Under the pieces are notes generated by a model. It made no database searches. It saw only the letters and a program-made list of their open reading frames with translations, and was not told where the DNA came from. The position numbers and the translations under genes are program-made. 64,000 bases of DNA from Candidatus Melainabacteria bacterium RIFCSPHIGHO2_02_FULL_34_12 (GTDB lineage: Bacteria > Cyanobacteriota > Vampirovibrionia > 2-02-FULL-35-15), in NCBI GenBank assembly GCA_001784555.1, contig MFRM01000006.1, forward strand, positions 34,244 through 98,243. The letters are read 5' to 3'. Shown piece after piece: positions 4,401 to 58,003 of this stretch. Each line of letters opens with the position of its first letter. The first letter of the stretch is position 1.

Positions 4401-5582
4401 TTGAGTTATACTTTTATTAGCTTAATGATTAGTTTATCTCATGTTAAGAAGTATGAACAGGTCAATCTTGGTTCCAAAATTTTGAGGGAATTAAGGTTTT
4501 TTTGTTTATTTTTTTTAATTTTAGTCTTAACGATTCCAGCAAATAGAACTTTTGCCCTGGATGAATCGAAACCAGCACTTCCGCTTGAAATCTCAGAAAA
4601 ATACTATAAAAAAGAAGCAATTTTAAAGTTTAATCAGGCAGTCAAAGAATGGGAATCCATGGATACTGCCCTGGCAATTAATTCATGGACTGAAGCTATT
4701 AAACTTGATCCAAATTTATGGGTGGCATATCTGGGACTTGGACAGGCTTATGAGTCTGAAAAAGAGTATACAAAGGCACTTGATGCTTATAAGCATTACC
4801 TTGATATAGCACCGCAAATTGCACCTGATCGGAAGACTGTAGTAGATGCAGTTAAATTCTTATCTCATCTTTTGAAAAATGGGGAGGAAGTTGTAAAAAG
4901 CAGTGACTATTTACAGCTTGTAAAAACTAAACATGGTGGTAGAGAACTTTTTGTCCGCTGGGATTTAAGCAAACCTGTAAAAATTTATTTTTATCCTGCA
5001 CAAGGAGTACCGCATTACAGAAGTGAATTTCAGGAAGCATTTTCAGAAGGAGCAAAAATTTGGCAGCAGGCCCTTGAAGGTTTAAAGTTTGAAATAATTG
5101 ATAATTCTATACTTTCTCTTTTTAAACTAAAAGAAAGAGAAAAAAAGGAAAAAGAATTTGTAGAACAAGCACAGATAAAAGTTATTTTTCCTTCCAGGTT
5201 TAAAATAAAAGGAGATCCAAAAAATCCTATTGCAGCTGAAATTGATGCTCAAAGTTTTCCGGAAATCAGGGATAAAAAAAACTTCAGAGTACTTGGAGTA
5301 ATTATGGTAAGTCCTTATATTTATCACCAGTCACAGATAGCAATTCCACTTGAGCCACTGTCAAAATTAAAAACAACAGAAGAGCAAATTAAAAAAATAA
5401 AAATTATTGCAGCACGCGAAGTTGGTCATGCTCTAGGGCTTTGGGGATTTAGTCCAAACCCAGATGATCTGATGTTTGAAGGAGAAGTTACCCAGCTTAA
5501 ACTTTCTGACAGAGATAAGAACACACTTAAAAAACTTTATGAGCTGGATCCTGAAAAAGAGAATGTGCTGACAAATTTTTAA
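4401..5582 (+). CDS. Secreted/membrane-anchored TPR-repeat protein with a degenerate metzincin-like motif
   Basis: N-terminal hydrophobic segment FFCLFFLILVLTIPA. TPR-like AINSWTEAIKLDPNLWVAYLGLGQAYESEKEYTKALDAYKHYLDIAP. Near the C-terminus, AAREVGHALGLWGF resembles HExxHxxGxxH but has R in place of the first His and G in place of the third. Confidence 0.5.
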   Translation: MSYTFISLMISLSHVKKYEQVNLGSKILRELRFFCLFFLILVLTIPANRTFALDESKPALPLEISEKYYKKEAILKFNQAVKEWESMDTALAINSWTEAIKLDPNLWVAYLGLGQAYESEKEYTKALDAYKHYLDIAPQIAPDRKTVVDAVKFLSHLLKNGEEVVKSSDYLQLVKTKHGGRELFVRWDLSKPVKIYFYPAQGVPHYRSEFQEAFSEGAKIWQQALEGLKFEIIDNSILSLFKLKEREKKEKEFVEQAQIKVIFPSRFKIKGDPKNPIAAEIDAQSFPEIRDKKNFRVLGVIMVSPYIYHQSQIAIPLEPLSKLKTTEEQIKKIKIIAAREVGHALGLWGFSPNPDDLMFEGEVTQLKLSDRDKNTLKKLYELDPEKENVLTNF

Positions 5583-7435
5583 TGAATCCAGCCAGCCATT
5601 GAACTTTTAGGTTCAAGCATAATTTCAAACCGAGAACTATTCTCTGTCTTTTGCGATCCGCCGTATTTTTTATCGGCAGTATTGATTTCAGATTCAAATG
5701 AACTTCCGCAAAACGGGAATCCTATTAAATGAGCCTGGTCTGAAAAAGAATGAATAACTCCTATTTTTTTATTTCCCAAGTCATATTCAATAGCGACCCA
5801 TTCTTTATCTTTTGAGCAATTTACAGTTATATTTTCTCTTTTAAAAGCAGCTTTACCAAAGTGTCTTTTTCTAAACTCAATAAGATCTTTATACAAAGAT
5901 TTGATTTGCTGGTTTCTTTCATTATCTAGTTCATCCCAATTTATTCTTGAATCTAAAAATGATTTAGGGTCATTTGGATCAGGGGTTGATTCCCAATCTG
6001 CCCGTTCAAAATACTGCATTTCCCCTAATCTGCCACTTCTTGCTCCATCTCTAAAAAGCTGATCATCATAATTCACAAAAAATAAAAAGGGACTACTTGA
6101 ACCAAATTCATCCCCACTAAAGACCATTGGAATATAAGGAGATAATAAAGCCAGTGCACTGGAGAGTTTGTACTCTTCAAAAGAAACCAGTGTGCTTAAA
6201 CGACTGCCCGAAGGGCTATTTCCGATAGAATCATGGCTACTATGATAAACCACAAAATGACTTGTAGATGTACCACTTGAAGGCTTTCCATAATTAATGG
6301 GTTTTCCATGTGGTTTTTTTCTTTTTCTAAATGCAGATTCACGTGTTCCGTTAAAAATATTTGGATCTTCTAATCCTTTTGCAATATCACTTATATTACC
6401 AGTAAAGTCTCCGTAATATGAAGCAGTTTCTCCTGTAAGCTTTCTACGCAGTGCTTGTTCAGGATTAAACGACCAGACAGCATCCAGACCATAACCACCT
6501 TCTTCGGGTGGCTGAATAAATTTCGGATCGTTTTCTGAACTTTCACCTATTATAAGAACATTTCTTCCTAAAGATTTTGCAAGTCTTTTTACCTCATCTC
6601 TTATTTCTCTTAAAATATGTTTTTGACTGCTATCAAAAATATAGTCCACAGCATCCAGTCTTAAAACATCAAAATGATATTCAAAAATCCAGTAAAGTGC
6701 ATTTGAAATAATAAAATCCCTTACTGCTTGACTTCCTTCACCATCATAATTAAAAGTTTTTCCCCATGGAGTTGTGTATTTCTCTGTAAGGTATGGTCCA
6801 AACGGATCTAAAAAATTATCCCCACCTGCTCCTGTATGGTTACAAACCAGGTCTTTTGCAGCTGCAATTTTTCTTCCATGAAGTGAATTTATTAAACTTT
6901 TTAACCGAACCGGACCGCCATAGCTGTTCTGTGGTGCAAATGGAAATATTCCGTCATAGCCCCATCCTCTTTTTCCTGGAAATTGTGCTAGTGGCATAGG
7001 TTCTACACAGGTAAAACCTACATCCTCTATATGGGGAAGTTTTCCCATTACCCCTTCAAAATTTCCTTCTGGTGTAAAAGTGCTTACTGGAAGTTCATAA
7101 ATAATCAGATCTTCCAGAGATATTCCATGCCAGTCTTGATCTGTCCATGTAAAATCTTTAGGATCTATTATTTGTGAGGGACCTCTAATACCATCAGGTT
7201 GAAATCTGGATGCTGGATCAGGCAGTTCAATACTATTATCAATTCTATAAAGATATCTTGCATTTGAGGATACCTTTGCATTAGCAGTAAAATAATCCTC
7301 TTTATCTTTAGACATTTGTACAGTTCTTGAATCTAAAACCACAGAAGCTTTGTTAACATTTGGTCCCCAGAACTTAAATTCGATTTTACGATTAGGAGTA
7401 ATATTGGCGCCAAGATGAAGTTTAAAAGCTGACAT
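5579..7435 (-). CDS. GH13 alpha-amylase-family enzyme, malto-oligosyltrehalose trehalohydrolase (TreZ)-like
   Basis: N-terminal E-set-like domain, then YELPVSTFTPEGNFEGVMGKLPHIEDVGFTCVEPMPL (TreZ-like). GH13 regions present: DLVCNHTG (region I), LRLDAVDY (II), IIGESSE (III), YHSSHDS (IV). Confidence 0.6.
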   Translation of the reverse strand: MSAFKLHLGANITPNRKIEFKFWGPNVNKASVVLDSRTVQMSKDKEDYFTANAKVSSNARYLYRIDNSIELPDPASRFQPDGIRGPSQIIDPKDFTWTDQDWHGISLEDLIIYELPVSTFTPEGNFEGVMGKLPHIEDVGFTCVEPMPLAQFPGKRGWGYDGIFPFAPQNSYGGPVRLKSLINSLHGRKIAAAKDLVCNHTGAGGDNFLDPFGPYLTEKYTTPWGKTFNYDGEGSQAVRDFIISNALYWIFEYHFDVLRLDAVDYIFDSSQKHILREIRDEVKRLAKSLGRNVLIIGESSENDPKFIQPPEEGGYGLDAVWSFNPEQALRRKLTGETASYYGDFTGNISDIAKGLEDPNIFNGTRESAFRKRKKPHGKPINYGKPSSGTSTSHFVVYHSSHDSIGNSPSGSRLSTLVSFEEYKLSSALALLSPYIPMVFSGDEFGSSSPFLFFVNYDDQLFRDGARSGRLGEMQYFERADWESTPDPNDPKSFLDSRINWDELDNERNQQIKSLYKDLIEFRKRHFGKAAFKRENITVNCSKDKEWVAIEYDLGNKKIGVIHSFSDQAHLIGFPFCGSSFESEINTADKKYGGSQKTENSSRFEIMLEPKSSMAGWIH

Positions 7436-9129
7436 TATTTAATGGTTGGATCGAATCTTCCTGATTCTATGTTTATTCTTCTTAATTCTTGATTTAAATC
7501 TTGCATTTGTTTTAAGCCATCCAGCCTGTATTGAGGTGGATATGAATATTTAAAGTTTCTCCCGCTTGAATCTCCAGGTAGATTAATAAACTGATCATCT
7601 CCAGTAAATGCATTTGGATTGTGAGCAGTTAAGATGTCAGACAGTGGATGAAAAGTATATAAAGGTGGACTGTGTGCCATAGTTTCTATTAGCTTTAGCA
7701 TGTAGTCTGGAGTCATTTGATCTGGTGTATGGTCTATTCCGTAAATATCTGCCATATTTCTTTGTTCATCAGGTGATAGAGAACTATAATTTTGTGCTTC
7801 AAAAGGTATATTGTGCGTGGAAAATGCAAGTCCATTTAAAGAATCATATTTGCTGACACCAATAAATTTGCCAGGCTTTTTGTCAGCACTGTCTCCCGTA
7901 GTAGTACCTTTTCTGTAGAATCTTGGGATTATCATTCCAAGAACTCCTTGTGCTTTTAAAATTTTATTACATCTTAATTGTCCTGTGCCAAGATTTTCTG
8001 CCATTATTTTTAATCTTCCTCCACCGGCAGTAATATATCTAGAGGTAAGTTCTGTAAGTTGATCATCCCAGATTTTTTCATCTCCTTGTGGATCTTCTGG
8101 TATATATGCTCCTGTATTTGGCTCAGCATCATTATCAATTGCAAATATTCTTCCAAGTCCAAAAACATGATCTATTACTTCACCAGTTGCTACATCTGCT
8201 AAACAATCATGCCTTTGATTAATGTATTCAAATCCATCTTCTCTAACTCTTTCCCAGTTCATTATTGAATTGTCCCATTTTTGTCCGGCAGGGCCGAGTT
8301 TATCAGGTTTGCATCCTGCTTTTTTAGTAGAGTCAACATAACCACGATGACGTAAAACCCATGTATCTGCACTGTCTCTGGCAGGCAAAAAAGGAGTATC
8401 AATAAATATTTCAAAATTATTTCTTATAGCATGATCTTTAACTCTTGCTCCTTGCATAAAAAGTTGGTACTGAAGCCAGCTGTGAAATCCTATATCATCT
8501 GCATTTTTCCCTTTAAAGGTGTTTATTGCAGATGAGTCATATTCTGCTATTTTATTGTCTTTCCAATCCCAGTAGGCTCTGCTTTCATTAATTACTTTAT
8601 TTGCTCTGTATATTCCAAAGTCACCAATCCAATATTTTTTAGCACCTAAAAAATCTGCAAAGCCAGATGGGAGTTTTGGTGTAAGAGAATTATTAAAAAT
8701 TAATCTTGCTACATGTTCAATTCTGTTTGCTTTTCCGTATAAATCTTTTGATCCGTAAGGAAAATCATTTTCAATTCCGGTAATTTCTGATTCGTAAATT
8801 TTTAAAACCGCAGTAGGTACATCTACTAAGTCTCTTAGCGATAAAAATAAAGGCCACAGAGCAAATGAACTTTGTGCTACATATGGACTTTCTCCGTAAC
8901 CAGCAGGATTCAGTGGAGTTAAAATAAATCCTGCGTGTCCTGTTTCAATTGCCCAGTCTATAGCCGGGATTAGATCCAGAAGTTTTCCATTTTCAAAGCC
9001 TGGCAAAAATAACTGAATTAATGCTTTTCTTTGAGGGCCACTTGAACCGTCTTTTGCCCATGCTTGCTTTGCAGTGGAAGTTAATAAACTACCGTAATCA
9101 TATTTGCCTGGATGGTATTGAACTCGCAT
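7435..9129 (-). CDS. 4-alpha-glucanotransferase (amylomaltase, GH77)-like
   Basis: GFILTPLNPAGYGESPYVAQSSFALWPLFLSL resembles the GH77 LPLGPTGYGDSPY...SAFAGNPLLI block. 564 aa. Its stop overlaps the start of the upstream GH13 gene, suggesting one operon. Confidence 0.55.
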   Translation of the reverse strand: MRVQYHPGKYDYGSLLTSTAKQAWAKDGSSGPQRKALIQLFLPGFENGKLLDLIPAIDWAIETGHAGFILTPLNPAGYGESPYVAQSSFALWPLFLSLRDLVDVPTAVLKIYESEITGIENDFPYGSKDLYGKANRIEHVARLIFNNSLTPKLPSGFADFLGAKKYWIGDFGIYRANKVINESRAYWDWKDNKIAEYDSSAINTFKGKNADDIGFHSWLQYQLFMQGARVKDHAIRNNFEIFIDTPFLPARDSADTWVLRHRGYVDSTKKAGCKPDKLGPAGQKWDNSIMNWERVREDGFEYINQRHDCLADVATGEVIDHVFGLGRIFAIDNDAEPNTGAYIPEDPQGDEKIWDDQLTELTSRYITAGGGRLKIMAENLGTGQLRCNKILKAQGVLGMIIPRFYRKGTTTGDSADKKPGKFIGVSKYDSLNGLAFSTHNIPFEAQNYSSLSPDEQRNMADIYGIDHTPDQMTPDYMLKLIETMAHSPPLYTFHPLSDILTAHNPNAFTGDDQFINLPGDSSGRNFKYSYPPQYRLDGLKQMQDLNQELRRINIESGRFDPTIK

Positions 9130-9176
9130 GTAAAAAAATTATTTAGTTCTTAAATTAATTGAAACTATTCTACTTT

Positions 9177-9377
9177 GTGTTACGGATTTATGTCCATAAG
9201 TTTAATTTTCTCTGAACGTATAAAGCGCCTTCCCTTAAAATCGGCTATCACGGCAGCAAGCTACCGTGTGTTACGCGGATTTTATCCCTTCAGCACCGGT
9301 CGGCGCTGTTAAGGAAGGCGCTTTGATTTTGCTCGTTTATATCCCGGAAGCAAGCTTCCGGGTTTTACACTTCGCTC
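9177..9377. repeat. GC-rich composite repeat. Two roughly 91-bp degenerate tandem units, each starting GTGTTACG(C)GGATTTTATCC and ending in a 20-nt hairpin (cacggcagcaagctaccgtg; cccggaagcaagcttccggg). The two units are also joined by a long-range inverted repeat: aaagcgccttccctta (9222-9237) versus ttaaggaaggcgcttt (9309-9324).
   Basis: Read directly from the sequence. The GC content is far above the flanking AT-rich DNA. Located between the GH15 stop and the GH77 start. Confidence 0.5.
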
Positions 9378-9386
9378 AAATAAATA

Positions 9387-11111
9387 CTAAGCAGCTAATG
9401 CTTGGTTTGTAATTGATTCTCGTAATTGGATAGCTCTGGTAGCTTCAGACACCATAATGGCAAAAACACCATGTGCCATTTGAAGAGGGGAATTTGGATT
9501 TGGAAGCCATTCTTCTCTCTCACCATCTTCCTTTTTCCAGCGAGCTTCAGGAAGTACTCCGGCGGGAATTTTAACAGTACGTTTTTCCAATGGGTTTACA
9601 AAAAACTCAATCTCATAGTCATGTTTTGTAAGTTGTGAAAGGCTTCTTTTCATAAATCTGTCTGCCAGAAGAAAACTTTTTTCATCTTTTCCACCAGACT
9701 TCAAATATCTCCCGTAGAAATGAGCTGCAAGTATGGGATCAAAAAGTGTCCACTGAGCAGCTTTATGTCCAGGGTAAATAACTGACCACTTTCCTTGTCC
9801 GTTTGGATTTGAAGCAAAGTTTTCACCAAAAAAAGCATCCAGCTCATCAGGCATCCTTCTTATACCGTATTCTCCCATATTTTCAATAAGTCTTTGAACA
9901 ATTGCATCCTGTTGTGCTTCATTTAAACCAGGATCAAATAAAAGTGAAAATGCAAGTGCGCTGTCACATGGTATTTCATTAGTTTCAACAGCAGGACTTC
10001 CGTCTAATGGGATTCTTTCATTTTTTATAGCATCACCCTTTTCAATTGCATCATCTATAATTTGTTTTAAATTAACATTTGGATTAACAGTAATAGTTTC
10101 ATTTGGATTCCAGCCTTTACTTTCAAAATATTGTTTAGCTTCCTTAAAAGCAGCTAGGCAGAGACTTACGCTGGAAGCTCTTTTTTTGCCTGTTTTGTAT
10201 TCCCATGGACCAATATCTGTTACATCCTCATATCCGATTTCATGGAGAAAATGCAAAGCTACTGAAAAAAGAGAATCATGACCATTTTCAGAATTTTGTC
10301 CGGTAAGAATACTATCCAGTTCTTTTAAGTCAATAATCCCTTGATTTGCAGCAAAAAAGAATGCATATAAATAAGCTCCTAAGCTATCAAGCTGATGATG
10401 TCCCCAATCCTTATATTCACCAAGTTTGCCATCAATAATGGATTGTTTAGCTCTTGGAAGCCCATTTATATCGCTTTCAAATTTTTCCTTTGCAAGTCTT
10501 TTATTTTCATTTGGATCAGGATTTAAAAACAAGAAAGATGTGAAATGCCCTCTTTGAAATGGATCATTGTCATAACTAGCCATAGCAATAAGTTCATCTT
10601 TTACTTTCTGAACAAGTTCTTCACGATCCTCAGAGCCTTCTGGCTCAAGAAGAGCAGCAAGTGTCATTCCGACAGTCATAATGGCATTGTCTCTTCGCCA
10701 TGAACTGTTACTGTATTCACTGGCTGCATTTGGGGAAGCTGGAATAGCACCGCTTTCATAAACTGTTAGATCCACGGTTCTTTCTATGGTTTCCAATATT
10801 TCATCAAGTTCAGCTGAGGTTGAAATTGGATCTGATTTTGTAATATGTTGATGCAACCAGTGTCCTTCAACTAACTCACTAGCTATTGGAATTTGCTCTG
10901 GCGTGATTAATTTAGCTGAATTAAAAATAGTCGAAGTCACCCATGCAGGTGTTGTACAGAGATTGTTTACTGGAAAGCTAGCTGTAAATCTTGGGACTGC
11001 GAAACAACCATTATTTGTTCTTCTATTATTGGTAATTGCACCTCTTGCTGTTCTAAGCAAAGGAACTCTTCTTATTCCACTGGTTATTAATGATGCTACT
11101 TCTGTTACCAT
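9387..11111 (-). CDS. Glycoside hydrolase family 15-like (glucoamylase / glucodextranase / GH15 trehalase)
   Basis: YSNSSWRRDNAIM matches the GH15 W-x-R-D-x-A block. DIGPWEYKTG matches the GH15 catalytic WEE region. The size fits an (alpha/alpha)6 barrel. The true start is probably downstream of the first Met. Confidence 0.5.
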   Translation of the reverse strand: MVTEVASLITSGIRRVPLLRTARGAITNNRRTNNGCFAVPRFTASFPVNNLCTTPAWVTSTIFNSAKLITPEQIPIASELVEGHWLHQHITKSDPISTSAELDEILETIERTVDLTVYESGAIPASPNAASEYSNSSWRRDNAIMTVGMTLAALLEPEGSEDREELVQKVKDELIAMASYDNDPFQRGHFTSFLFLNPDPNENKRLAKEKFESDINGLPRAKQSIIDGKLGEYKDWGHHQLDSLGAYLYAFFFAANQGIIDLKELDSILTGQNSENGHDSLFSVALHFLHEIGYEDVTDIGPWEYKTGKKRASSVSLCLAAFKEAKQYFESKGWNPNETITVNPNVNLKQIIDDAIEKGDAIKNERIPLDGSPAVETNEIPCDSALAFSLLFDPGLNEAQQDAIVQRLIENMGEYGIRRMPDELDAFFGENFASNPNGQGKWSVIYPGHKAAQWTLFDPILAAHFYGRYLKSGGKDEKSFLLADRFMKRSLSQLTKHDYEIEFFVNPLEKRTVKIPAGVLPEARWKKEDGEREEWLPNPNSPLQMAHGVFAIMVSEATRAIQLRESITNQALAA

Positions 11112-47947: not shown

Positions 47948-48007
47948 AAACGATCCTCCTGGGTTTATGACGGATAGAATAAAAATTTTAGCCGTCTTTC
48001 AGTGAAT

Positions 48008-48172
48008 TATTATTGCGCCCGAGCGAAAAACTCGGGAGCTTGCTCCCGGAGATGTGAGCGAGTAGCAACAAAACGCCTCCTTACTAACGCCTCCTGATGC
48101 CCATGGCTCAAATCGGCGAAAAACTCTGTGAGCTTGCTCCAGAGATAGTCGATTTGAAGGGAGGCGTTTTAT
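48008..48172. repeat. GC-rich repeat/palindrome island in the divergent promoter region. It contains hairpins cccgag-cgaaaaa-ctcggg and gggagcttgctccc, a direct repeat GCGAAAAACTC(g/t)G(g/t)GAGCTTGCTCC x2 (48023-48046 and 48117-48140), and a long-range inverted repeat caaaacgcctcc (48069-80) / ggaggcgtttt (48159-70).
   Basis: Read from the sequence. It begins with tATTGCGccc, reminiscent of the ATTGCGAGG element termini. It overlaps the spurious track ORF 47999..48187. Confidence 0.5.
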
Positions 48173-48263
48173 AAAGTTTAATAACAAAGCTAGTTATATA
48201 CTTAGAAAGCTTTTTTATTTTAAGTCTGTAGGTTTTGAAACTATTTACTAGGGTTAATACAAG

Positions 48264-55678: not shown

Positions 55679-56986
55679 ATGGAAAATATTGCAGAAATAA
55701 GTACTGCTCTAGATACAGCATGGATATTAATTATGGGCTTGCTTGTATTTTTTATGAATACAGGCTTTGCAATGCTTGAAAGTGGTTTTTCCAGGGTAAA
55801 AAACACAGTTAACATGCTTTCAAAAAATGTAACAGTGTTTTTTATATCAGTTCTTGCTTTTTGGTTTATTGGTTTTGCGCTTATGTTTTCTGAAGCAAAT
55901 GGATTTATTGGTATAAATTCTTTCTTAGGATTATTTTTATCGGGTAATAAAGAGTTTTATTCATCTTTAAAACATTTAAACATTCCGCTTGATGCAATCT
56001 TTTTCTTTCAGATGGTTTTTGCTGGCACTGCTGCCACAATTGTTTCTGGGGCGCTTGCTGAGAGAACAAAATTTATTTCCTTTCTTATTTTTACTTTTTT
56101 TATGTCTGCATTAATTTATCCTGTCTCCGGTCACTGGATTCTAGGAAAAGGTTTTTTATATGATCTTGGCGTAAGAGATTTTGCCGGATCGCTTATGGTT
56201 CATACTGTAGGCGGTATGGCTGCACTTGCTGGTGTAATGGTTATGGGTCCTCGAGTTGGGAAATATAATAAAGACCTTACCCCAAATGCAATTTTAGGAC
56301 ATTCCATACCTATGATTACGCTTGGTGGATTTATCTTATGGCTTGGTTGGTTTGGTTTTAAAATGGGATGTACGTTTGGTTTTTCGCCAGAGCTTTGTGC
56401 TCACATTGCGCTCTGTACAAATGCCAGTGGAATCATGGGAGGTCTTGGGGCACTAATTGGCTCGTGGTATTTCCTTAGAAAACCTGATCTTTCAATGGTT
56501 ATTAACGGGCTTTTAGCAGGCCTTGTAGCTAGTACTGCATCATGTGCTTATGTAAGTCTTCCTTCTGCACATTTAATTGGTTTTGTTGCCGGCAGTCTTA
56601 CGGTAATTTCCATTTTATCTTTAGAAAGATTTTTTTACATAGATGATCCTGTGGGTGCAATTTCAGTTCATGGAATAGGTGGTATATGGGGTTCTCTTGC
56701 TCTTGGTTTGTTTAGTGCTAGAGAGCATATAAATTATGCTCATGTTGCATATCCAAAAGCTGGATTGTTTTTTGGCGGAGGTGCTGAACAACTTTTACTT
56801 CAGTTAATTGGGATTCTTGCAGTTGTTGTTTGGTCATTTATAATATCTTTTATCGTCTGGAAAATATTAAAACATACAATAGGAATAAGAGTTTCACAAA
56901 AAGCAGAAGTAGACGGACTGGACTTAGCCGAACATGGAATGGAGGCCTACCCTGGGTTCGTTAGTAGTGGAGATAGTATTATATAA
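55679..56986 (+). CDS. amt: Ammonium transporter (Amt family)
   Basis: 11-TM profile and the Amt signature DFAGSLMVHTVGGMAALAGVMVMGPRVGKY. Confidence 0.9.
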   Translation: MENIAEISTALDTAWILIMGLLVFFMNTGFAMLESGFSRVKNTVNMLSKNVTVFFISVLAFWFIGFALMFSEANGFIGINSFLGLFLSGNKEFYSSLKHLNIPLDAIFFFQMVFAGTAATIVSGALAERTKFISFLIFTFFMSALIYPVSGHWILGKGFLYDLGVRDFAGSLMVHTVGGMAALAGVMVMGPRVGKYNKDLTPNAILGHSIPMITLGGFILWLGWFGFKMGCTFGFSPELCAHIALCTNASGIMGGLGALIGSWYFLRKPDLSMVINGLLAGLVASTASCAYVSLPSAHLIGFVAGSLTVISILSLERFFYIDDPVGAISVHGIGGIWGSLALGLFSAREHINYAHVAYPKAGLFFGGGAEQLLLQLIGILAVVVWSFIISFIVWKILKHTIGIRVSQKAEVDGLDLAEHGMEAYPGFVSSGDSII

Positions 56987-56994
56987 ATCTGTAG

Positions 56995-57026
56995 GGGCTT
57001 GCTGCAGCAAGCCCTTGATTGAAATT
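56995..57026 (+). terminator. Rho-independent terminator after amt: perfect 20-nt palindrome gggcttgctgcagcaagccc followed by ttgattgaaatt
   Basis: Read from the sequence. 9 bp after the amt stop codon. Confidence 0.55.
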
Positions 57027-57031
57027 ACATT

Positions 57032-58003
57032 ATGCAAAAACCCCAAATAAAAATCATCCTTGATGATAATAAAATAAAAAAAGCTTTAAAAATAAAAGAT
57101 GTAATTAAAGTTATTAAAGAAGGTTTTAGAAAAAAAGGTCTTGGACTTGTAAGTTTGCCTCCTAAAACGGGTCCGAAGTTAAATATTGCTGGTGCATTTG
57201 CAGAATCAATGCCAGTGGCGGTGTTTAAAGAAGGCAGGGTTACGCAACCCCACCTTCAAATATTTGGAATAAAATGGCAAAGTGCATATAAAAGTAATCT
57301 GAAAAAGGGTTTGCCGTATTTAAATAATTTAATTATTTTAAATGAACCTAAATCTGGTCTTCCATATGCAATAATTTCAGGGAATTGGATTACAGCTATT
57401 CGTACAGCTGGTGTAAGTGCAGTTTGTGCTAAATACCTGGCACCAAAGAAAAGAGAGCTAATTATAGGGATATTTGGTCTGGGGTTGCAGGCATATGTGC
57501 ATGTTCTGGCATTTAAAGTATTATTTCCAAAAGCCAAGTTTTTTTTATTTCATCACGATTCAAAGAAGTTAAACATTTTCAAGAAGAAATTTCCTAAAGA
57601 AAGATTTTTATCATCAAATAATTTCCATGGAGTAGTAAAAAACTCTGACATTATACTTAGTGCTACTACTTTTCCAAAGAAAATCTCACCTTATATATTC
57701 CCTCAGGATTTAAAGAAAGATGTTTTAATTTTGCCGCTTGAATATGGAAGTAGAATCAGTCCAAATTTATATAAATATGTAGATAAAATATATACTGATG
57801 ATATTGCTCAGTATAAATTAAAAAAGAAAATAAAATATTATTTCCCGTCAAATGCTCCTCGTATAAAAAATGAAATTGGAGATTTAATTGCTAAGAAAAG
57901 AAATAAAAAAACTTCTTCAAAAAGAATTCTTGTGTTTAATTTAGGCATTGCCTTGTTTGACATATTGATTGCAAGAGAAGCTTTATCAAAACTAAAAGGT
58001 TAA
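57032..58003 (+). CDS. Ornithine cyclodeaminase / mu-crystallin family protein
   Basis: NWITAIRTAGVSAVCAKYLAPKK...IIGIFGLGLQAYVHV is the OCD/mu-crystallin NAD-binding core pattern. Confidence 0.65.
   Translation: MQKPQIKIILDDNKIKKALKIKDVIKVIKEGFRKKGLGLVSLPPKTGPKLNIAGAFAESMPVAVFKEGRVTQPHLQIFGIKWQSAYKSNLKKGLPYLNNLIILNEPKSGLPYAIISGNWITAIRTAGVSAVCAKYLAPKKRELIIGIFGLGLQAYVHVLAFKVLFPKAKFFLFHHDSKKLNIFKKKFPKERFLSSNNFHGVVKNSDIILSATTFPKKISPYIFPQDLKKDVLILPLEYGSRISPNLYKYVDKIYTDDIAQYKLKKKIKYYFPSNAPRIKNEIGDLIAKKRNKKTSSKRILVFNLGIALFDILIAREALSKLKG

Follow-up and report, generated by a model that had tools for sequence, protein, structure and literature searches.

Transposons of the IS200/IS605 family and their gene-less derivatives are the closest described systems to the element reported here. 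In IS608, 4-nt guides lying 5' of the left and right hairpin feet read the cleavage sites, with the left guide (G_L) AAAG matched to the left cleavage site (C_L) TTAC; this left site is a flanking sequence that precedes the hairpin by 19 nt on its 5' side, and TTAC is the motif 3' of which the element inserts (PMC3201880). ISGst2, a member of the IS605 family, has TTTAT as its TAM, and the same work also described PATEs, which are gene-less derivatives (PMC10055086). Known PATEs, such as those of Haloquadratum walsbyi and of the ISGst elements of Geobacillus stearothermophilus, are short, gene-less and multi-copy, carry IS200/IS605-type ends and are presumed to be mobilised in trans. REP/REPIN elements are extragenic hairpins of high copy number that depend on a Y1 HUH enzyme acting through a guide-like tetranucleotide.

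Analysis of the sequence at positions 9177-9377 of the window, by which we mean the whole 64-kb stretch of Candidatus Melainabacteria bacterium (RIFCSPHIGHO2_02_FULL) DNA that was analysed, shows that it very probably belongs to a gene-less, non-autonomous IS200/IS605 derivative (a PATE), that is, to selfish mobile DNA and not to a regulator of the glucan genes beside it. The element is a further member of the already described PATE kind. This reading follows from the presence of multiple copies in differing flanks, constant edge motifs, a guide rule at the cleavage sites, tnpA-bearing relatives and a strand bias.

The region sits inside a 257-bp spacer separating two minus-strand ORFs.

7435-9129, minus strand: GH77 gene, with a GH13 alpha-amylase gene next after it
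9387-11111, minus strand: GH15-like ORF, with a weak GH15 match that falls under the Pfam cut-off

The first-pass annotation had named these flanking GH15 and GH77 genes correctly, the GH15 match being the weak one, and a GH57 gene is the upstream neighbour of this glucan gene group. The stretch that separates the element from the GH77 start includes a promoter-like TGGACA-18-TAGAAT. ARAGORN found no tRNA in the region, and no Y1 transposase was present among ten candidate ORFs of the 64-kb window, all ten of which were housekeeping genes. Elsewhere in the window, a perfect 20-nt palindrome (GGGCTTGCTGCAGCAAGCCC) at 56990-57025 separates an ammonium transporter gene (55679-56986) from an ornithine cyclodeaminase-like gene (57032-58003); by its appearance this is a common bidirectional terminator, not a further copy of the element.

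Two copies of the element are present in the window. The boundaries of copy 1 were defined from 13 related copies in differing flanks, and its parts are given here in top-strand order.

9220-9379, minus strand (top, active strand): element copy 1, 160 nt, delimited by copy comparison and motif coordinates
9380-9384, minus strand: left-flank target motif TTTAT (TAM, left cleavage site)
9363-9366, minus strand: left guide G_L, AAAA, abutting the 5' side of the IP_L foot
9343-9362, minus strand: left-end hairpin IP_L (hairpin A), CCCGGAAGCUUGCUUCCGGG, with the top-strand loop CUUG
9311-9324, minus strand: P1 5' arm, AAAGCGCCUUCCUU
9291-9308, minus strand: P2 hairpin, CAGCGCC-GACC-GGUGCUG
9275-9284, minus strand: P3 5' arm, UAAAAUCCGC
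9269-9272, minus strand: right guide G_R, AACA, 5' of the IP_R foot
9249-9268, minus strand: right-end hairpin IP_R (hairpin B), CACGGUAGCUUGCUGCCGUG
9245-9249, minus strand: conserved (G)AUAG after IP_R
9236-9245, minus strand: P3 3' arm, GCCGAUUUUA
9222-9236, minus strand: P1 3' arm, AAGGGAAGGCGCUUU
9220-9224, minus strand: right cleavage motif TTTAT (TEM), the final bases of the element

Copy 2 was located by a relaxed search for the hairpin.

48014-48172, plus strand (top strand): element copy 2, 159 nt, between divergent FG-GAP genes
48009-48013, plus strand: TAM
48168-48172, plus strand: TEM
48031-48051, plus strand: IP_L
48124-48144, plus strand: IP_R
48070-48082 and 48157-48170, plus strand: arms of P1
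48108-48117 and 48148-48157, plus strand: arms of P3

The copies are 75% identical to each other and lie in opposite orientation in the window. A site without the element would be expected to join ...TAGTATTTAT to ACGTTCAGAG... for copy 1, and ...ATTATTAT to AAAGTTTAAT... for copy 2. Copy 1 is 90.6% identical to a related copy at locus L077 (L numbers denote the loci and contigs retrieved), and 11 copies in differing flanks on other metagenome contigs, from the Ga0155197 assembly and related contigs, share 92-99% identity with copy 2. In both window copies, as in 12 related ones, TTAT stands directly before the element. No credible ORF is contained within either window copy (159-160 nt), and no terminal inverted repeats were reported in them. 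The element is therefore short and non-coding, with multiple near-identical copies in different flanks, as known PATEs are. A 62-aa ORF with a TTG start (47999-48187, minus strand) wholly covers copy 2; an annotator might list it as a hypothetical protein, but it is almost certainly no real gene.

The two 20-nt hairpins with a gcaagc loop on the plus strand that the first-pass annotation had described are present at 9249-9268 and 9343-9362, where they form a 29-nt direct repeat of 83% identity at a spacing of 94 nt, and the hairpins of copy 2 are in direct orientation as well. The reverse complementarity that it had seen between middle segments is exact (9222-9233 against 9313-9324, 12/12). 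Each of these motifs is expected to match 0.01-0.06 times by chance in the window. Its division of the region into two tandem units of ~91 bp did not survive: TRF found no tandem array, and the left-end and right-end hairpin modules had been mistaken for a duplication. The alleged units do start alike over 15 nt (9170-9184 against 9261-9275, 87%, spacing 91), a likeness weakly above chance, and the first unit start, taken as 9177-9195, falls outside the element.

9165-9197, minus strand: segment resembling the P3 5' arm, the guide and half of IP_R

This segment overlaps the promoter-like TGGACA-18-TAGAAT. Local alignment of the flank at 9130-9215 to the element scored 23, compared to 14.7 +/- 1.9 for shuffled sequence (8 of 2000 shuffles reached 23), and by this weak sequence likeness the segment may be a decayed piece of an older copy.

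Folding of the minus-strand transcript, a check proposed with the original description, gave -79.7 kcal/mol (z = -6.5) and uncovered alternative pairings for P1. The plus strand folds less well (-66.8 kcal/mol, z = -3.8), and in P2 of copy 1 a G.U pair on the minus strand becomes an A.C mismatch on the plus strand. The top strand of copy 1 is the window minus strand, as seen from both the G.T excess and the stronger minus-strand fold. The long helix is kept by compensating changes between the window copies, AAAGCGCCUUCC/GGAAGGCGCUUU in copy 1 vs AAAACGCCUCC/GGAGGCGUUUU in copy 2.

Relatives were collected from genome and metagenome collections using a scan pattern common to both window copies, CTATC-N5-AGCAAGCT-N70-100-AGCAAGCT. 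Filtering with nhmmer and inspection removed termite-gut tandem repeats, coding-sequence matches and 16S-like repeats, leaving ~60 distinct elements, all of which have two similar hairpins in direct orientation. CTATC and both AGCAAGCT loops were built into the pattern, so the apparent invariance of these motifs and of GATAG is, in part at least, an artefact of ascertainment, and sampling was biased against long elements; more distant transposase-bearing relatives have other loops. Two pattern scans of viral contigs returned a single match, unrelated to the family. Unrelated arrays of ~40-nt units (…GAAGAAGCTTGCTCCCCAGATAGTATGATCTGTACCAGAGGCTTGGTCACGTTT…), often terminating in GCTGCAACTACAGTTTTATGTACTCCTGATGAT, were caught only via AGCTTGCT…GATAG; these lie on L047, L049, L050, L055, L067-L071, L075, L081, L084, L113, L120, L124, L125, L137 and L138, which are Ga0123xxx, Ga0136643, Ga0209755 and related metagenome contigs.

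Hosts of the relatives include Woesearchaeota, another archaeon, Glassbacteria, Gracilibacteria, Acidobacteriota, Chloroflexota, a deltaproteobacterium, Desulfarculaceae and Paracaedibacter. With hosts such as Melainabacteria, DPANN archaea and CPR, the family has another host range than known PATEs. Five identical copies were present in a single archaeal MAG, most of them where the fetched DNA stops. The genes next to the relatives are unrelated housekeeping genes: dCTP deaminase, EngA GTPase, DHFR, CDP-alcohol phosphatidyltransferase, the peptide-binding protein SBP_bac_5 and a tRNA gene. Rfam returned no match at the element (the region searched to E 10, the whole window at the gathering threshold, and 13 family loci). 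The occurrence of the same element beside unrelated genes, together with the empty Rfam result, effectively excludes a gene-specific regulatory RNA and indicates a mobile element.

Several loci showed further arrangements. On L128 (2784-3121), PATE copies lie head to tail with one TTTATT in common between them, the arrangement predicted where a new copy uses the terminal motif of the preceding one as its target. L061 (4715-4830, minus strand) holds a solo right-end domain (P1/P3, ACUUGC-loop hairpin, GAUAG and UUUAU) without a left-end hairpin, probably a decayed copy; an EngA/Der GTPase gene lies 25 nt downstream of it, and an RNase H-like gene adjoins it. TnpB was considered as a neighbour of this solo copy and ruled out, the ORFs there being the RNase H-like and EngA ones. 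At the Acidobacteriota locus L016, a molybdenum cofactor riboswitch (Rfam RF01055, 57.5 bits; 5995-6117, minus strand) lies ~3.7 kb from the PATE near a MoCF_biosynth/MOSC gene and is unrelated to the element.

Two of the options in the first-pass annotation were regulatory, namely an RNA acting in cis on the glucan genes and a terminator/antiterminator pair. A leader of this kind for the GH77/GH13 genes, whether riboswitch, attenuator or terminator/antiterminator, is highly improbable: near-identical copies lie beside unrelated genes both in the window (FG-GAP) and elsewhere, and the suggested search with Rfam covariance models matched no family. The element does lie between the co-directional GH15-like and GH77 genes in their own orientation, and its P1 3' arm has two alternative upstream partners, which would suit such a leader. 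A terminator scan also flagged a hairpin and T-run on the bottom strand of copy 2, but it flagged no sense-strand terminator at copy 1, and the T-runs that follow the hairpins on the bottom strand (plus strand for copy 1), terminator-like by eye, are simply the complements of the A-rich guides. A search for GH77 homologues at E <= 1e-50, aimed at orthologous spacers, found the identical protein only; the other contigs with this GH77 gene are of the same strain, and the element is present in all of them.

As an inserted PATE, copy 1 would lie within a transcription unit. Its TTTAT target begins 2 nt past the TAG stop of the GH15-like ORF and it is co-oriented with the GH15-like/GH77 operon, on the sense strand, so the operon transcript would contain the element. 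From this position, copy 1 may affect mRNA stability or read-through in the GH77 operon.

The edges of the element were fixed by comparing copies of one subfamily in different flanks. Across independent insertions, the left flank is TT(T)AT or TTTAA and the right end is TTTAT or TTTAC. At each hairpin, the tetranucleotide just 5' of the foot varies in step with the tetramer at the matching edge. On the left, AATT occurs with TTAA (delta, AUK210, L036, L007 type, L016, L033 and L092), and AATA or AAAA with TTAT (Woesearchaeota type, L014, L150, L112, L057 and both Melainabacteria types). On the right, AATG occurs with TTAC (delta type, part of the L007 type, and L018), and AATA, AACA or AAAA with TTAT. 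The base just 5' of the hairpin foot is the Watson-Crick complement of the fourth base of the cleavage tetramer. Both right-end states are found within the L007 subfamily, always matched to the guide (L007, L102, L130, L059 and L072 vs L146, L106, L145 and L149). The rule covers both ends in about nine subfamilies, the boundaries of each taken from at least two insertions, with L078, L024, L092 and L035 as exceptions.

Judged from the sequences, this covariation between guide and cleavage site is the IS608 rule, the 4-nt guides being complementary to the cleavage sites. By that rule (PMC3201880), G_L AAAA of copy 1 would pair with the TTAT cleavage site. The element further resembles IS608 in having subterminal hairpins, imperfect palindromes in direct orientation, at both ends on one strand without terminal inverted repeats, in a left cleavage tetramer that belongs to the flank and precedes the left hairpin foot by 10-20 nt (IS608: 19 nt), and in the guides themselves, AATG here and AAAG in IS608 both going with TTAC. 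The TTTAT motif is also that of ISGst2 (PMC10055086). It differs from IS608 in that the hairpin sequence and the GATAG motif are clade-specific and in that 27-30 nt separate the hairpin foot from the right cleavage site (10 nt in IS608), a distance that results from embedding the right end in the extra helices P3 and P1 and the side hairpin P2. In two forms the left-flank motif is unlike the right-end motif (TTTAAT vs TTTACT in the L007 type; TTTAA vs TTCATT in the transposase-bearing form IS-X), which argues indirectly against target-site duplication. A classical MITE derived from a DDE transposon was also considered and rejected, as there are no terminal inverted repeats and the edge motifs are constant rather than variable.

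The window copies lack a transposase, unlike IS608, but their relatives encode one. A tblastn search with IS608 TnpA, treated as a lead only, matched L073 and L036. The ORFs at these loci matched Y1_Tnp at ~1e-36 and NCBIfam transpos_IS200 at 134-136 bits (cut-off 55). L073/L158 and L159 carry a 144-aa tnpA ORF (Pfam Y1_Tnp 2.8e-36; transpos_IS200 134.5 bits) followed by hairpin A and then the full right-end domain, which scored 90.9-91.4 bits with the covariance model described below. Transposase sequence of the L073/L158 type was present on 52 contigs.

The contexts of the tnpA homologues fall into three forms. IS-X, a minimal IS200, reads TTTAA in the flank, then CTAGAGAATT, a hairpin, tnpA, GATA, a second hairpin and AGATTCATT up to the right edge; its ends were defined from many independent flanks, and it has a plain right end without P1-P3, with the right cleavage site 9-10 nt from the hairpin as in IS608. 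IS-L is a longer form that carries the three-way-junction right end. IS-W, from Woesearchaeota, encodes a TnpA that is 54% identical and has ends that are both exactly of the PATE type: TTTATT in the flank followed by ...GGGTTTAATA and the hairpin on the left, and P3-GTAATG-hairpin-GATAG-P3'...TTTAC on the right. Loci L163-166, also from Woesearchaeota, have PATE-type left and right ends around tnpA, and a plasmid of Synechocystis sp. B12 (L168) has an annotated IS200/IS605 tnpA between CCCCGCAGCTTGCTGCG hairpins at both ends. Autonomous relatives with the same ends as the window copies thus encode a Y1 HUH transposase. For the Woesearchaeota PATE, a nested insertion of IS-X into an internal TTTAA was considered and set aside, as it did not fit the truncated IS-X right end.

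Two loci hold neighbouring transposase genes of different kinds. At L036, a second, different IS200-type transposase gene (4760-5310; Y1_Tnp 1.4e-36) with its own hairpins (CCACGGCCTATGGCCGTGG) lies ~150 nt from the PATE left end on the opposite strand, which may reflect clustering of single-strand transposons. At L157 (869-1793), two different Y1_Tnp genes stand in tandem. A gap of 31 nt separates the right edge of the first element (…TTCATT) from the start of the second gene, as would fit one IS200 having inserted beside another.

The same transposases bear on the suggestion in the first-pass annotation of a duplicated REP-like insertion, which comes nearest of its three options. The element is indeed inserted, multi-copy and dependent on the Y1 (HUH) superfamily, and like REP/REPIN sequences its hairpins are GC-rich and extragenic in an AT-rich genome; it is nonetheless of the IS200/IS605 PATE type and not linked to a RAYT. 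The hairpins are direct and not inverted, the ends are defined and carry a target motif, and in autonomous relatives the transposase gene lies inside the element ends. Where the L073 and L036 transposases reach 134-136 bits on transpos_IS200, they reach 23-33 bits on the RAYT model REP_Tyr_transpos (cut-off 80). Mobilisation of a REP/REPIN element by a RAYT is accordingly close to negligible as an account of these copies.

For the PATE, transposition can be outlined by analogy with IS608. TnpA, a Y1 HUH transposase supplied in trans, would bind both hairpins on single-stranded top-strand DNA, and each guide would base-pair with its cleavage tetramer. The element would be excised as a single-stranded circle, which would then join a new location 3' of a TTAT site, leaving the target unduplicated. 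Present mobility of the element and the source of TnpA in this genome are inferred.

The right end has a more elaborate architecture. In top-strand order, the left flank motif and hairpin A are followed by a P1-closed domain with the P2 hairpin and P3, and then by the terminal TTTAT or TTTAC. At the tip of P3 are hairpin B and an internal loop in which GUAAUA faces AUA, with GAUAG coming after the hairpin, and in some subfamilies hairpin A is enclosed by a further helix, P0. MAFFT alignment of full-length copies with RNAalifold recovered two hairpins only and left P1 and P3 out of register, for which reason a hand-specified structure and re-alignment to a covariance model were needed. The model, CM R1, was built from 22 non-Melainabacteria sequences with this hand-specified structure, and it recovers both window copies (64.2 bits, E ~3e-10 for copy 2; 59.9 bits, E ~3e-9 for the right-end domain of copy 1).

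In an alignment of 59 sequences to the model, 93.5% of cells were paired, compared to 67.8% in shuffles, and 26 of the 29 modelled pairs had double-sided changes. The covariation score was 0.618, vs 0.175 in shuffled alignments (0/500 reached the observed value) and <=0.143 in slid controls; fitting the alignment to the model favours the structure, yet the margin is large nonetheless. G.T pairs outnumber A.C on the top strand (83 vs 24). Conservation of this three-way-junction right end by covariation across very distant hosts sets the family apart from known PATEs.

Both Melainabacteria-type copies contain the 5' partner segment of the P1 3' arm in duplicate (AGCGCC in copy 1; AACGCCUCC in copy 2).

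9291-9324 and 48070-48094 of the window: duplicated P1 5'-partner segments

Two mutually exclusive P1 pairings are therefore possible; in copy 1 the 5' half of P2 can pair with the P1 3' arm instead, and the covariance model and RNAfold pick different P1 pairings for different copies. The known TnpA mechanism does not require P1-P3, and the minimal IS-X does without them. If formed, P1-P3 would in the modelled structure keep the right cleavage site apart from its guide. By default, we take P1-P3 to be a fold that could join the two ends in single-stranded DNA or restrain cleavage.

Other options for P1-P3 are a tnpA 3'-UTR or terminator module, or an omegaRNA-like RNA, and we regard these RNA readings, taken jointly, as unlikely. 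The U-rich tail after P1, the G.U pairs on the strand sense to tnpA and the CUUG loop of the hairpins on that strand would all suit a transcript. CUUG is a stable tetraloop. The strong covariation (26/29 double-sided; 0.618 vs 0.175 shuffled) would suit an RNA as well, but equal covariation is expected from a single-stranded DNA fold. PATEs often encode omegaRNAs according to Meers et al. (PMC10055086), and like a TnpB omegaRNA the domain is a structured region of ~100 nt that ends at the transposon right end beside a TAM-type motif. This resemblance is positional only; no tnpB lies nearby, and Rfam, including any omegaRNA models held there, gave no match.

One possible form of the omegaRNA version is that the flank 3' of TTTAT provides the guide and that TnpB or IscB, a nuclease encoded elsewhere, uses the scaffold in trans and is thereby directed to TTTAT-adjacent sites. 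No tnpB or iscB neighbour was found at ~28 tnpA-bearing loci (L153-L179, L168), all of which are tnpA-only, or next to family members at the loci examined, a weak argument given that the sample is biased to short elements and against long ones; the autonomous IS-X moreover dispenses with P1-P3. The family is accordingly known here without a linked TnpB or omegaRNA, which also separates it from known PATEs. It is thus doubtful that the element, or at least its right-end domain, is a transposon-borne structured RNA, be it a guide scaffold or a new regulatory or terminator RNA, and there is only a slim likelihood that the three-way-junction domain (P1/P2/P3, hairpin B and GAUAG), found from Melainabacteria to DPANN archaea, acts as a functional RNA on tnpA-only IS200 elements and PATEs. 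Were it true, each window copy would be a guide-RNA gene standing on its own instead of inert DNA.

With the locus read as a PATE, the glucan operon loses a candidate regulatory RNA and gains an insertion in its place. The analysis also records an IS200 clade, together with its PATEs, in lineages that have been little studied, including Melainabacteria, Woesearchaeota, Gracilibacteria and others. The covariance model lets annotators mask these elements in MAGs, where copies tend to break assemblies. Within this clade, the IS608-type guide/target code can be read straight from natural covariation, which offers transposon biologists a natural data set on target reprogramming.
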